In this document: positions 4,902-55,052 of the stretch, one piece after another
Numbering within the stretch: the stretch's first letter is position 1
Layout of the letters: the number at the start of each line of letters is the position of its first letter
Assembly: GCA_028280285.1 (NCBI GenBank)
Contig: JANQMA010000004.1
Coordinates: forward strand, 15,820 to 79,819
Source of the DNA: Candidatus Omnitrophota bacterium
GTDB lineage: Bacteria > Omnitrophota > Gorgyraeia > Zapsychrales > Zapsychraceae
Length of the DNA: 64,000 nt
Reading direction: 5' to 3'
Position numbers and translations under genes: made by a program
Notes under the pieces: generated by a model
The model's database searches: none
What the model was told of the DNA's origin: nothing
The model's input: the letters and a program-made list of their open reading frames with translations, nothing else

Positions 4902-7900
4902 ATGCGAATATTTAAAGGTAAATATAAATCAGTTTTTAAACAGGTGCTCAGTGTATTGACGGCGGGCATATTTGTTGTTAGTTCGACTGTTGTACCAATC
5001 GTACCTGCGAGCGCGCAAGGTATAGCCCTCTCTTTGCCCAAGCCGGGCACGATGGTGGGATTAAGTGATATCTACCAGCCGACATTACTTCAAGCCATCA
5101 CCATTCATCCGGACAATCCCTTGCGTTTTGATTTTATTGTAAGCCACGGCGATGATTACCAAACAGAAGCCGAGTTTAAAAGTGATTCTACCAAACTGAT
5201 TAAATATTTTCTTGCCTCGCTGACAATACCGGAGGATGAGATGTGGGTCAACTTATCTCCGTATGAGAAGGACCGCATTATCCCGGAAAGCTTTGGCTAC
5301 ACGGAGATGGGACGTGACCTGCTTGCTCAGGACTATCTGCTCAAACAATTGACCGCGTCGCTCATGTATCCTGAAGGAGAATTAGGCCAGGAATTTTGGG
5401 CAAAGGTAAAAGCGCAAATAGATGCTCATCGCTCGTCGCTCGATGCTCACGGTGAAATACAAGTATCTAGCATCGAGCATCTAGCATCGATGTTTAATAA
5501 GGTCTGGATTGTCCCTGATCAAGCCGAAGTCTATGAGCGGGATAATACTGTCTTTGTGGTTAACAGTCATTTGAAGGTGATGCTTGAGGAGGATTATCTA
5601 GCGAGCCAAGAAAGTGGTCAGTGGTCAGTGATCAGTGATCAGTCAAATAATACGACCACAGACCACAGAGCACAGACCACGCAAGTTACCCGCGAAATCA
5701 TTATTCCCGCTATTGAAGCCGAGATCAACACCGGCCAAACCTTTGCCAATCTCCGTCAGATCTATCATTCGATGATCCTGGCGACATGGTACAAAGTTGC
5801 TTTACAAGAAAGCCTGCTCGGCAAGATCTATATGGATCGTAACAAGGTTAAGGGGGTAGACGTCAAAGACCGCGATGTAAAATTCAAGATTTACGATCAG
5901 TATCTAGAAGCTTTCAAGTTAGGCGCCTACAACTATATTAAAGAAGAGTACGATCCAGTAGCACAGCAAATCATTCCACGTAAATATTTTTCTGGTGGAG
6001 CCCAGGCTGTTGATGCTGCTATGTTGAAAAGACATTCGGGCGATCCGGCAAGTTTGCCTCCACATATACAGAATAATATTAGAGCAACAACAAGGTTATT
6101 GTCATCCGTTATTACTGCCGATTTAAACAGAGCCTTGGAAGCAAGCCTTGTGCCAATTGGATTTGAAAGTATTGATGGGGATAGTTTAAAAGATTCTTTG
6201 GTTTCCGGTGCGTCCTATGAAAGCGAAGTAGATGATGTTATTAAGGTTAGACATTATACCGAAAGTGCTGGTATTGGTTTTGAGTTTTCTTTTCAAGATA
6301 AAACAAAGCCTGTTCGTTTTTCCCTTAGTTTTAAAAATCCAAAAACAGTCGAAAGTATGATTACTGACCCTGAGTCTGATTTTATCAAAAAACATAGTAC
6401 TGAAGTATATGCCAGAATCATTATGTGGCTTAATGACTTTCAGGTGGAGACTTTATCTTCGATGAGCGCTTATGACAATAAAGATAGGCCGAAAGAGGCC
6501 TTCCGAAATTTTAACCGCAAAGTTGCCCAAGCCCTTGATCCGAATGTTGATTTGGATAGTGTGGTTACTGAAGAAGGGGATCTTGTTAATTTTAATATCA
6601 AAGCATTGATGCAGAGTTTAAGTAGGGGGCAAGCTTTAGATAATTTAAGCGAATGGGTCAAGTCAAACAATTTGCAAGATCCGGCGCAATTAGAAGATCA
6701 AGTCGATTTTGCTGATTTGCCAGAAGATTTTAAGAGTTATAAACAAGAAATTACTTCAATATTAAAACGGACAATTAATTTTCTACAAAAACTTATTCCG
6801 TCTTATGAATTATCAGAAAGTGGGGTCTGGAATTTTGATGCTCTTCTTGAGATATCATCAGAGGAGCAGAAAAAAATTGATTACCTTAAGGATTTTATTG
6901 CACAAATAGAAGATAGAGTTACTGAAATTAACAACGCAGAGAATTATCAATCGTTATATAATGGGGCAAGTGGATTTTCCGCAATGCTGGTTAGCTTTGA
7001 CGAAGATGTCTTGTCGGGTGATACGGTTGCACAGGGTAAGCTTTTAGAATCAATGAAGGAAGTTTCCAGCGCAAGCAAGCGTTTGTCACAAATAGTTACT
7101 GCCCCCTTATTAATGGAAATGCAAATTAGAGATCACGCACCAGACGCGGCGGGTTTGACGGATGTTTTGGGTTTAACGGATTTAAAGGATTTAAGCTCGG
7201 AACAAATATTCGAGTATATGGTTAAAGGCACTGGTTATGAGGATGAGGTCAGTGAAGTGATGATTCGAAAAGGGTCAGAGATCTCTGCCTTTAAAGTTCA
7301 TTTTAAATTGAAAGATGTTGATGAACCAAGTACAGGCGTAGATCAACAGGAAGAGCGAAGGGATGTTATTTTCCCGTCATTAGTTATTTATTATAGAGGA
7401 AGTGCGGTTACGGGTATTGAGTCTAATTTAGCTACTACTGAAAATGAAAATTTACTTAGGTTTAGGAGTGAGCATGTTGTTGAGATGTTTGCGCGTGCTT
7501 TACATATGATAGATGATTTGGGCTACAGTAGTACTAGGGTTAATACGGTGGATGATTCAGGTCAATTTGAATCATTTTTAGGGCGTGTTGCTACATTTTT
7601 AAACCCCGAATATGATTTCGATTCTGATCAAGCGCAACCTTTTAGCGATACAAAAATTATCAATTCTCAAGGGAAAGAAGGAATCTATATCAATGTTCCT
7701 GCATTATTGTCAACAGCACCAGCACTCGCTGATGAAGCCAGTTTAGAACAAGTCGGGGGGATTGATTTTAACCCAGCTGCGATGAATTTACAAATTAGGC
7801 GTGATGGAAACGGCGTGGCGCTTCCTTTCAGTGAGCAGCCGCCGGAGATCATGCAGATTGAAGGGCTTGTGCCTGTGATTATCAATATAGTGCCTGCCAA

Positions 7901-8024
7901 TATGCCGCTTCTTTTAGGTCTGGCGGATAGCCCGGGCACAGAAGGCTTCCCTAATAACGACGCTCAAGTACAATTTGAGCGTGCCCCTGCCTATGACCGT
8001 AGAAATTTATCGTATTTGAATTGA
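4902..8024 (+). CDS. large secreted protein of unknown function (1040 aa), with an N-terminal signal peptide
   Basis: Uninterrupted 3.1-kb ORF. Hydrophobic N-terminus ending in ASAQG. No domain I can recognise. Contains an in-frame repeat-element insertion. Confidence 0.7.
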   Translation: MRIFKGKYKSVFKQVLSVLTAGIFVVSSTVVPIVPASAQGIALSLPKPGTMVGLSDIYQPTLLQAITIHPDNPLRFDFIVSHGDDYQTEAEFKSDSTKLIKYFLASLTIPEDEMWVNLSPYEKDRIIPESFGYTEMGRDLLAQDYLLKQLTASLMYPEGELGQEFWAKVKAQIDAHRSSLDAHGEIQVSSIEHLASMFNKVWIVPDQAEVYERDNTVFVVNSHLKVMLEEDYLASQESGQWSVISDQSNNTTTDHRAQTTQVTREIIIPAIEAEINTGQTFANLRQIYHSMILATWYKVALQESLLGKIYMDRNKVKGVDVKDRDVKFKIYDQYLEAFKLGAYNYIKEEYDPVAQQIIPRKYFSGGAQAVDAAMLKRHSGDPASLPPHIQNNIRATTRLLSSVITADLNRALEASLVPIGFESIDGDSLKDSLVSGASYESEVDDVIKVRHYTESAGIGFEFSFQDKTKPVRFSLSFKNPKTVESMITDPESDFIKKHSTEVYARIIMWLNDFQVETLSSMSAYDNKDRPKEAFRNFNRKVAQALDPNVDLDSVVTEEGDLVNFNIKALMQSLSRGQALDNLSEWVKSNNLQDPAQLEDQVDFADLPEDFKSYKQEITSILKRTINFLQKLIPSYELSESGVWNFDALLEISSEEQKKIDYLKDFIAQIEDRVTEINNAENYQSLYNGASGFSAMLVSFDEDVLSGDTVAQGKLLESMKEVSSASKRLSQIVTAPLLMEMQIRDHAPDAAGLTDVLGLTDLKDLSSEQIFEYMVKGTGYEDEVSEVMIRKGSEISAFKVHFKLKDVDEPSTGVDQQEERRDVIFPSLVIYYRGSAVTGIESNLATTENENLLRFRSEHVVEMFARALHMIDDLGYSSTRVNTVDDSGQFESFLGRVATFLNPEYDFDSDQAQPFSDTKIINSQGKEGIYINVPALLSTAPALADEASLEQVGGIDFNPAAMNLQIRRDGNGVALPFSEQPPEIMQIEGLVPVIINIVPANMPLLLGLADSPGTEGFPNNDAQVQFERAPAYDRRNLSYLN
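5612..5681. repeat. full copy of the (xGTGRTC)n/(GAYCACx)n heptad palindromic element, lying inside the CDS
   Basis: agtggtc agtggtc agtgatc agtgatc ag - loop tcaaataatac - gaccaca gaccaca gagcaca gaccac. Translated in-frame as SGQWSVISDQSNNTTTDHRAQTT. Confidence 0.8.
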
Positions 8025-8045
8025 TAGTGATAATCGAATCAGAAA

Positions 8046-8147
8046 GTAGTATTCTTCGCTCAAACAGTCCTCGCACAATTTCAGGTCTCTGAAATTAGTG
8101 CTGTGGAACTCGCTCGGGAATACTACTTTCTGATCCCGGTCGACTTT
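8046..8147. other. about 100-nt nested stem-loop: 18-19 bp outer stem (GAATCAGAAAGTAGTATTC / GAATACTACTTTCTGATC) enclosing an inner hairpin (aatttcag...ctgaaatt)
   Basis: Complementarity read directly. No T-run follows. Lies upstream of the rpsA promoter. Confidence 0.5.
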
Positions 8148-54543: not shown

Positions 54544-54546
54544 TCC

Positions 54547-55047
54547 GTGAGCACGCAAAAAATAATTACAATCGCGACGCTTAAACGTAAGCTTTCGGTT
54601 CTGCGCAACAAACGTAAAAAGATTGCTTTTACCAACGGTTGTTTTGATATTTTACATAATGGGCATGTTAGTTATTTGCAAAAAGCTAAGGCGAAAGACC
54701 GCATACTAGTTTTAGGGCTTAATAGCGATAAGTCGGTCCGCAGGATCAAGGGGCCAAAGCGTCCGATTGTCAATGAAAAAGACCGCGCATCGATTCTTGC
54801 CGCGCTTGAGTGTGTTGATTATGTTGTCATTTTTAATGAGGATACGCCGCTTAAGCTCATAGCAGCGGTTAAGCCGGATATTTTGATTAAAGGCGCTGAC
54901 TGGAAAGGCAAAGGCATTGTCGGCGAGGATGTGGTTCGCGCCCATGGCGGTAAAATTGAATATGTGAAGTTTGTTAAGGATAAGTCGACGACGAATATAG
55001 TAAAACGGATCTTAAAGATTCATAGAGCACAGACCACAGAACACTGA
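54547..55047 (+). CDS. D-glycero-beta-D-manno-heptose 1-phosphate adenylyltransferase (HldE domain II type cytidylyltransferase)
   Basis: FTNGCFDILHNGH nucleotidyltransferase motif. The last codons HRAQTTEH and the stop come from a repeat element. Confidence 0.8.
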   Translation: MSTQKIITIATLKRKLSVLRNKRKKIAFTNGCFDILHNGHVSYLQKAKAKDRILVLGLNSDKSVRRIKGPKRPIVNEKDRASILAALECVDYVVIFNEDTPLKLIAAVKPDILIKGADWKGKGIVGEDVVRAHGGKIEYVKFVKDKSTTNIVKRILKIHRAQTTEH

Positions 55048-55052
55048 ACACA
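55024..55052. repeat. half-copy (GAYCACx arm) of the heptad element family overlapping the 3' end of the preceding CDS
   Basis: agagcac agaccac agaacac tgaacac. Supplies the TGA stop. Confidence 0.6.

Follow-up and report, generated by a model that had tools for sequence, protein, structure and literature searches.

The stretch analysed here (the window; 64,000 nt of contig JANQMA010000004.1, assembly GCA_028280285.1) stems from the genome of a Candidatus Omnitrophota bacterium, a placement that RpoA supports, and all of its genes lie on the + strand. Six loci in the window carry arrays of the heptamer xGTGNTC, four of them as hairpins of two inverted arms and two as a single C-rich arm, with a constant size of four units per arm (Table 1). 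Two of the hairpins lie in the operon that contains infA, rpmJ, rpsM and rpsK, and another is found inside an open reading frame (ORF). Together with 9.5 kb upstream of the window, where the genes include a secretin, 73.5 kb of the genome were examined. The hairpins fall into a class of bacterial heptanucleotide repeats that has long been known, is widespread and still lacks an explanation.

Heptad hairpins of the window

The exact pattern GTGNTCNGTGNTC (GTGNTC-N-GTGNTC) has 27 matches in the window against 0.04 expected, all of them confined to the six loci, and GTGRTCNGTGRTC with at most one mismatch has 26 against 0.54 expected. The initial annotation, which had described six copies of one sequence family, is borne out in this respect. 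The same holds for the contexts that it named, namely infA/rpmJ, rpsM/rpsK and the site after the rpsA terminator, with which the Pfam assignments agree (rpsA by its six S1 domains, with tyrS next). Of its two half copies, the one given as 55024-55052 needs a shift of a single base (55025-55052), whereas the one given as 8164-8194 actually lies at 8156-8183, some 8-11 nt off. No convincing degenerate G-rich partner arm (a cryptic half-site) was found upstream of either single arm.

Table 1. Heptad hairpins, single arms and one related hairpin in the window (positions count from the first base of the window)
Feature	Position	Strand	Arms and units	Context
H3, GTGNTC two-arm hairpin	5613-5681	+	G-rich arm 5613-5640 (AGTGGTC AGTGGTC AGTGATC AGTGATC), loop 5641-5653, C-rich arm 5654-5681	in frame within ORF 4902-8024
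H4h, single C-rich arm	8156-8183	+	GACCACG GAACACA GAACACC GAACACT	ahead of rpsA
H5, two-arm hairpin	9934-9990	+	arms 9934-9961 and 9963-9990, one base between	past the rpsA intrinsic terminator, 11 nt ahead of the tyrS start
H7, two-arm hairpin	39478-39534	+	G-rich arm 39478-39505 (first heptad AGTGATT, degenerate), C-rich arm 39507-39534	infA-rpmJ; first heptad overlaps infA stop TGA (39480-39482); rpmJ ATG at 39550
H8, two-arm hairpin	40054-40127	+	G-rich arm 40054-40081, loop 40082-40099, C-rich arm 40100-40127	rpsM-rpsK; rpsK ATG downstream at 40143
H12h, single C-rich arm	55025-55052	+	GAGCACA GACCACA GAACACT GAACACA	overlaps last codons of cytidylyltransferase-like gene 54547-55047; next ATG 26 nt on (55078)
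Hairpin	4012-4085	+	GGTTTTA / TAAAACC-like; RNA fold -37.9 kcal/mol	between glmM-like and plsC-like genes
H2, hairpin	5421-5490	+	GCTCGTC / GAGCATC	in frame inside ORF 4902-8024
Hairpin	12897-12957	+	GTCATTA / TAATGAC	between nusG and rplK (Pfam)
Hairpin	44974-45037	+	GCCGTAA / TTATGGC	after PilT-like T2SSE ATPase gene; lipoate ligase gene also neighbour (Pfam)
Hairpin	48341-48414	+	xGTTGTT / AACAACx	between aroQ and M24 peptidase gene (Pfam)
Hairpin, second copy	52853-52916	+	xGTTGTT / AACAACx	between Asp23-like gene and pfk (Pfam)
Hairpin	56807-56876	+	AGCGTAT / AAACGCT	between M23 peptidase gene and ATPase-HTH gene (Pfam)
Related hairpin, about 190 nt	1798-1989	+	tandem 8-mer and 9-mer arms	between proA and nadD

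While the six-copy family is confirmed, its first description was too narrow and passed over at least seven further hairpins in the window, which are made of other heptamers but likewise consist of two inverted arms with about four tandem 7-mers each. Tandem Repeats Finder detected 22 period-7 arrays in the window against 1.25 in dinucleotide shuffles, nearly all of them in inverted pairs, and other repeat periods are far less enriched (about 6-fold at most where counts are appreciable). With three to four units each, the arms are heptanucleotide tandem repeats. The two-arm copies have predicted folding energies of -17 to -38 kcal/mol (z = -2.7 to -10), and the single arms do not fold.

The 13 loci (six of GTGNTC and seven of other heptamers) comprise ten that fall entirely between genes, two that are in frame within a single ORF and one that overlaps a coding sequence at its 3' end. 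Of the 11 intergenic spacers of 90-130 nt, nine are occupied by one such hairpin. The 5' arms begin 0-29 nt past the upstream stop codon, except in the copy after the rpsA terminator, and the 3' arms end 6-28 nt ahead of the next start codon in 11 of 12 cases. The elements sit in the sole permissive gaps, that is, in stop-to-start spacers and in loosely conserved in-frame segments.

Rfam 15 at gathering score yielded two tRNAs only in the window and no family for the hairpins. Among twelve hairpin-rich loci elsewhere its sole match was an unrelated Acido-Lenti-1 RNA (RF01687, 46.8 bits) at 2852-2898 of the Pyrinomonadaceae contig L047, 1.5 kb from a heptad hairpin, a proximity that is probably coincidental.

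Repetitive structures of other kinds are likewise present. In the hairpin at 1798-1989 the 8-mers read AGTGATA+N, where N is C, G, A and T successively, and the inner arms consist of 9-mers (AAAGAGATA); this looks like the same design principle at other periods. Long imperfect palindromes without heptads occur in spacers at 4683-4806 (a pair with 58-nt arms after plsC), 25765-25887 (three hairpins between fusA and tuf) and 58992-59056 (G+C-rich hairpins); hairpins between genes seem to be a general feature of this genome. A 97-nt element of two hairpins, which has no Rfam match, is duplicated at 11420-11516 and 11811-11907 (76% identity); its copies directly follow tRNA-Thr and tRNA-Trp, with rpmG between them.

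Recent gain and constraint on the GTGNTC unit

The window was compared with three Omnitrophota contigs (L121-L123) whose RpoA is 82-86% identical, over an orthologous region of 15-21 kb each. No period-7 array was found in this region of any of the three relatives. Their infA-rpmJ gap measures 3-35 nt against about 70 nt here, and their rpsM-rpsK gap 17-44 nt against about 101 nt. As the relatives lack the arrays and their spacers are too short to hold one, the hairpins are lineage-specific additions, extra DNA recently gained in this Omnitrophota lineage. This gain removes a reading as ancient regulatory sites, against which the initial annotation had already decided and for which it had named conservation at orthologous positions as the telling sign. 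Exact-protein look-ups yielded no second strain for empty sites at the strain level. The same contigs differ in ribosomal protein S14, of which the long form (89 aa) occurs here (33694-33963) and in L122, and a short form of 61 aa in L121 (2609-2794) and L123 (2713-2898).

Two of the hairpins, at 5421-5490 and 5613-5681, are read in frame in a secreted protein of 1040 aa that belongs to an Omnitrophota-specific family. The GTGNTC copy H3 codes for SGQWSVISDQSNNTTTDHRAQTT and fills a variable linker with the peptide SGQWSV...TDHRA. The same hairpin in the same linker is found in two further homologs, P0130 (contig L124) and P0142, on two other Omnitrophota-family contigs, and about 55 other homologs have unrelated linkers. 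The segment that includes H2 is 11 aa longer than that of the homologs, and its loop maybe retains the host residues G-E-I of the protein. Odd linker peptides at the same site are shared among the homologs P0143, P0171 and P0238 (DIAESRD..SRDL) and between P0128 and P0182 (RRGLIHQTQDK). These may stem from other palindromic insertions, and the linker looks like an insertion hot spot.

The GTGNTC unit itself is highly constrained. In the 39 heptamers of the window the bases G, T, G, T and C are invariant at 194 of 195 positions, and the spacer and the central base take all four bases; under uniform decay such a split into five invariant and two free positions has a probability of about 1e-22. 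The substitutions listed in the initial annotation (GTGGTC, GTGATC, GTGCTC) do exist, but GTGTTC is frequent too and the variation is limited to the two free positions, at which adjacent units differ and the + strand prefers A in both arms. In other phyla the variation of the heptamer is spread across all seven positions, which makes the two-position pattern special to this lineage.

In the hairpin the free positions stand opposite each other and are mostly mismatched, so that the stem is a string of 3-bp and 2-bp helices. Not a single G-U-compatible transition was observed at 96 paired sites of the C-rich arms, and the constraint hence looks stricter than RNA pairing. We infer that it acts either through Watson-Crick pairing in a DNA hairpin or through recognition of GTGNTC by a protein. 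The six C-rich arms furthermore share the positional pattern GAxCACG GACCACA GAACACW GAWCACT (54 against 40.7 under permutation, p = 0.011), which suggests copying of the whole 28-nt arm.

Three other sources of the unit or its variation were considered and not adopted. Adenine mutagenesis as in diversity-generating retroelements, for which the free positions would be both A's of AGTGATC, is not supported: the centre is G across phyla, A does not persist in the C-rich arms, and a reverse transcriptase was not found near the hairpins. CpG decay fits long GAACACN arrays in metagenomes and not the window. GATCAC equals GAUCAC of the 16S rRNA 3' tail, but complementarity to this tail is rejected as a general rule, as the 5'-arm heptamers of 43 other hairpins score 3.30 against 3.34 when shuffled.

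Related elements in other genomes, phages and the literature

Three GTGRTC heptads were searched in a scan of one genome per species, and the following figures refer to the matches listed. These come mainly from Acidobacteriota, Planctomycetota, Verrucomicrobiota and Chloroflexota. Many are (CAGTGGT)n-loop-(ACTGACC)n hairpins, and the same loci hold pairs of other heptamers. The G/T-rich arm stands 5' in 29 of 31 cases for this heptamer (p = 5e-7) and in 16 of 22 for others, and the 5' arm has AG 30 times against four times CT; these counts among the matches listed are not phylogenetically independent. Such a G-first rule does not depend on the strand, as the reverse complement of a hairpin keeps the order of its arms. 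Across phyla AG is the best-conserved dinucleotide of the unit. The genes at 39 hairpins elsewhere are in tandem (22), convergent (10) or divergent (7), which indicates no strong bias, with an ORF heuristic that is noisy in high-GC DNA.

Among the viral contigs listed, some phages possess 5-7 arrays per 9-14 kb, placed immediately ahead of ribosome-binding sites. The related IMG/VR phage contigs L187, L140, L152, L213 and L179 have compound elements of up to 10 CAGTNNN units per arm (e.g., L187 1838-1990 and 3862-3999). Their parts follow the order A (GGT units), B (AAT units), A' (ACC units) and B' (ATT units), a topology that implies either a pseudoknot or hairpins that exclude each other. 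Only one strand allows G-U pairs, and the loop AGTAAAGGCAAAAACT is conserved. The phage contig L155 (IMGVR_UViG_3300049183_000013) has seven copies of a motif of about 37 nt, TTCCACCGATCACTGATCACCGATCACCCGGCACTT, at 1770-12300. All are on one strand, about 10-60 nt upstream of an ATG and with no visible Shine-Dalgarno sequence. Built on three heptads, the motif might serve the phage as promoter, operator or leader.

A metagenome scan for the form with A/G spacers gave mainly long single direct arrays among the matches listed. Direct GAACACN arrays of tens of units are seen in the JGI metagenome contigs L276, L264, L331, L359 and L294 (G+C 0.38-0.44). Their spacer alternates between A, G and T, and GAACAC alternates with GAACGC, so that CG/CA accounts for most of the variation; the arrays are flanked by further short tandem repeats (CAAACTT, TTAATAA).

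A literature search with the sequence strings returned unrelated primer hits only, and the unit xGTGNTC is not identical to any of the named families STRR1-3, TAACTGA and GGGAATC, nor is it a rotation of TAACTGA or GGGAATC. STRR2 of the cyanobacteria (TTGGTCA) is one base off GTGGTCA. Among the long simple-sequence repeats of prokaryotes, heptanucleotides are reported to be the most abundant class, for which polymerase slippage has been suggested as a cause. The cyanobacterial short tandemly repeated repetitive (STRR) heptanucleotides (Mazel et al. 1990, as cited in PMC4692102) likewise consist of tandem 7-nt units with few copies per site, are dispersed between genes with several heptamers per genome, and lack an explained function. 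They are direct arrays of heterocystous cyanobacteria, whereas those described here are mostly paired inverted arrays of four units in Omnitrophota, with two hypervariable positions and some copies in frame within a gene, unlike STRR as described.

TAACTGA direct repeats are known from marine Beggiatoaceae, cyanobacteria and Bacteroidetes (MacGregor 2015, PMC4679880). They form intergenic arrays of 2-6 units, in forward orientation a few nt upstream of start codons, ribosomal protein operons included, with a patchy distribution across phyla (PMC4679880), and TAACTGA is a rotation of ACTGATA, a unit in C-rich arms of the phage hairpins. By contrast, almost all are single direct arrays (one inverted pair in 170), while four of our six copies are two-arm hairpins and the ACTG core is not conserved in the window. 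The GGGAATC arrays of Xanthomonas are also intergenic and form about 70-75 convergent pairs per genome able to fold into stem-loops or cruciforms (Rehm et al. 2015, PMC4692102). Their units, however, have G-tracts, G-quadruplexes have been proposed for them, and their sites are largely conserved between two species; the GTGNTC copies have no G-runs and are not conserved in relatives. In Geobacter metallireducens, 15-49 inter- and intragenic sites have families of four or five heptanucleotides in tandem, GGACCGG and MTYCTGA (Aklujkar et al. 2009, PMC2700814); some are depicted as pairs that switch strand, with an annotation as putative regulatory elements (PMC2700814). The heptamers and the phylum differ, and polarity or hypervariable positions are not part of that analysis. 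The cited heptanucleotide-repeat literature makes no mention of a G-first arm order, of a heptamer shared across phyla and phages, or of units with five invariant and two free positions.

Repetitive extragenic palindromic (REP) sequences and REPINs are short imperfect palindromes of 20-40 bp, often in inverted doublets, between unidirectional or convergent genes and sometimes in genes (PMC3733652, PMC3116915). They appear in transcripts as RNA hairpins, are specific to lineages and do not create target-site duplications (PMC3733652, PMC3116915). The elements of the window share this build, with 28-nt arms in inverted, extragenic pairs between co-directional genes. REPs differ in their unpaired GTAG/CGTC tag (PMC3733652), their mobilisation by REP-associated tyrosine transposases (RAYTs) and the lack of an internal 7-nt periodicity.

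Origin and possible function

As a whole the elements are best explained as imperfect palindromes that represent the paired hairpin form of the bacterial heptanucleotide repeats, act as REP-like punctuation and were spread by copying, a reading that we adopt tentatively and credit with somewhat less than an even chance. Each element is an imperfect palindrome of two inverted arms with about four 7-nt units and is probably co-transcribed with its flanking genes. It would not terminate transcription, as rpmJ, rpsM and rpsK would otherwise be severed from their operon. In the transcript a stem-loop is predicted between the cistrons, in the GTGNTC copies a 'beaded' one whose 3-bp and 2-bp helices would be split by 1x1 mismatches. 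Like REP, it would at most punctuate the mRNA, as a barrier to 3'-exonucleases, as a processing site or by uncoupling neighbouring cistrons, and without such a role it would be nearly neutral. The GTGNTC family may have spread when an existing arm or hairpin was copied via a single-strand hairpin intermediate, in a REP/RAYT-like manner or by template switching at replication, with the five invariant bases presumably held by the pairing or protein recognition considered above.

The initial annotation had suggested a small mobile or copied element, like a REP or a miniature inverted-repeat transposable element (MITE), active in this lineage. Its copied part stands, given one family that was gained and whose C-rich arms share a pattern. 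The MITE part is not supported, for want of a target-site duplication, of a conserved internal or loop sequence and of a transposase in the 64 kb, and the elements are REP-like rather than MITEs. Nor is the element peculiar to the lineage: hairpins of two arms with four heptads each are also made of unrelated heptamers in the window and recur across numerous phyla and phages, so that the phenomenon is a widespread class that may also arise in situ.

Several observations weigh against spread by copying and REP-like punctuation. No direct repeat is common to the flanks of the four two-arm copies or of the hairpin on L124, i.e., target-site duplications are absent. The loops of the two-arm copies (1, 1, 13 and 18 nt) are unrelated, so that the whole element is inverted repeat with no conserved internal sequence, and no REP tag (GTAG/CGTC) stands beside any of the six copies. 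According to Pfam the window encodes no transposase, RAYT, ribbon-helix-helix protein or cold-shock protein. Without a target-site duplication, conserved loop, tag, transposase or RAYT, the copying step has no identified machinery in the window. The permutation test applied to the C-rich arms yields no common positional pattern for the G-rich ones, and the 9.5 kb upstream of the window contain no period-7 heptad arrays. For the GTGNTC family the + strand RNA is predicted to be 4-8 kcal/mol less stable than that of the - strand, which is odd for an element selected as sense-strand RNA. The build shared by the seven hairpins of unrelated heptamers, finally, is as easily explained by growth in situ.

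Such growth without mobility is the strong rival, and we consider it possible though rather doubtful. Replication slippage would duplicate one 7-nt unit within an arm of a small palindrome already present, and intramolecular template switching (quasipalindrome correction) would copy the change to the other arm. The identical architecture of at least seven unrelated heptamers in one window fits this, as do the unconserved loops, the absence of target-site duplications and arrays elsewhere that span from two to more than 40 units. The overlap of the first heptad of H7 with the infA stop codon and the host residues possibly kept in the loop of H2 point in the same direction, as does the slippage already proposed in the literature for heptanucleotides. 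It accounts less readily for one heptamer in six copies within 64 kb, all of them built of four units per arm and alike in the pattern of their C-rich arms, or for the same heptamer in distant phyla and phages and one and the same hairpin in the corresponding linker of three homologs. Recent slippage would, moreover, leave neighbouring units identical, whereas they differ at the free positions.

Operator arrays and protein-controlled RNA switches are less likely, though they would explain invariance and polarity. The omega repressor of plasmid pSM19035, a ribbon-helix-helix protein, binds contiguous WATCACW heptads, direct and inverted, with one dimer per heptad. By analogy, the arrays might be duplex-DNA operators with one 7-bp unit per protein subunit, serving as regulatory or chromosome-organising sites, which we deem unlikely. 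The five invariant positions of seven without compensatory or wobble changes would suit such sites, as would the similarity of GATCAC/GACCAC to WATCACW, of which the GATCAC variants fit 5-6 of 7 positions. H4h ends 11 nt upstream of TTGACA-16-CATAAT (8194-8221; with an upstream TG), the best sigma-70-like promoter match in positions 1-14000, and lies at about -40 to -70 of this promoter match ahead of rpsA. The seven same-strand GATCAC triple-heptad motifs of phage contig L155 stand just ahead of genes. Of the six GTGNTC copies, however, only H4h adjoins a strong promoter match, and most lie in operons or coding sequence with no promoter nearby. One sequence-specific protein cannot serve hairpins of the same build with unrelated heptamers, and the window lacks a gene for such a protein. 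The omega operators belong to plasmid promoter regions with a known cognate protein, and the arrays here are chromosomal and mostly outside promoters; omega-type systems are not known outside Firmicutes plasmids. The heptanucleotide arrays of Geobacter, on the other hand, are annotated as putative sites of a global regulator (PMC2700814).

In the RNA switch, a protein that binds single-stranded RNA in a 7-nt register, on the G-rich 5' or the C-rich 3' arm, would set hairpin formation and thereby adjust read-through, the stability of the mRNA or the translation of the following cistron. We judge this improbable; candidate binders would be a cold-shock-domain protein, S1 or a HutP-like ring with NAG-N4 repeats as its target. 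The 7-nt period argues for it, as do the G-first polarity with AG prevailing in the 5' arm and the conservation of AG across phyla. Single arms are C-rich on the sense strand near start codons here and, weakly, elsewhere (52 vs 34; 52 vs 32), as in the TAACTGA repeats of Beggiatoa, and CspB binds with one protein per heptamer, as cited in PMC4679880. On the other side, no binding protein was identified, the AG/CAGT core is not conserved in the window, where A belongs to the two free positions, the heuristic for gene orientation is weak, and the polarity is explicable without a protein, e.g., by avoidance of an exposed C-rich Rho loading site.

An ordinary intrinsic terminator or attenuator that happens to be built of repeats is very improbable. 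The hairpin at 44974-45037 is indeed followed by a T-run (TTTTTT) and replaces an ordinary terminator hairpin at the same position in a relative, and T-rich tracts follow several hairpins in other phyla. But it is the sole heptad hairpin in the window with such a run, and in an intrinsic-terminator scan of the window no heptad hairpin scored as terminator-like, all six GTGNTC copies being devoid of a U-tract. Termination would be harmful at infA-rpmJ and rpsM-rpsK, one copy comes after a canonical terminator, two hairpins are within an ORF, and the divergent genes at seven of the 39 hairpins elsewhere do not fit either.

Chance or an assembly artefact can safely be dismissed: assemblers do struggle with such repeats, as a contig break at one hairpin attests, but the 27 matches far exceed expectation, a second assembly is identical across 5.5 kb, two hairpins leave reading frames intact and the same architecture recurs on at least hundreds of unrelated public contigs. 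This second assembly, the Logan assembly of SRR20820735, equals the first 5494 nt of the window with zero mismatches, a stretch that holds three hairpins of the wider class. Its contig SRR20820735_174989, from an independent short-read assembly, stops at 5494, exactly where the heptad hairpin at 5421-5490 ends, and such repeats may fragment metagenome-assembled genomes.

The hairpins offer a clean natural experiment, being new both in the cell's most conserved operon and, in frame, in a protein, with the corresponding sites empty in close relatives. Heptanucleotide repeats are the commonest long simple-sequence repeats of bacteria, were first described 35 years ago (STRR) and are still puzzling; the G-first order, the shared heptamer and the five-invariant units make their function testable as DNA hairpin, duplex operator or RNA switch. 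Paired heptad hairpins could even be one functional system across phyla, carried by phages, with the G-rich arm first, a CAGT/ACTG-like core every 7 nt and a protein that binds single-stranded nucleic acid in a 7-nt register and decides the formation of each intercistronic hairpin. We regard this as a long shot; if true, it would constitute a global layer of operon punctuation and translational control and provide a function for repeats known since 1990. Even if selfish or neutral, the elements give rise to new intergenic structure and new protein linkers, and they also break assemblies.

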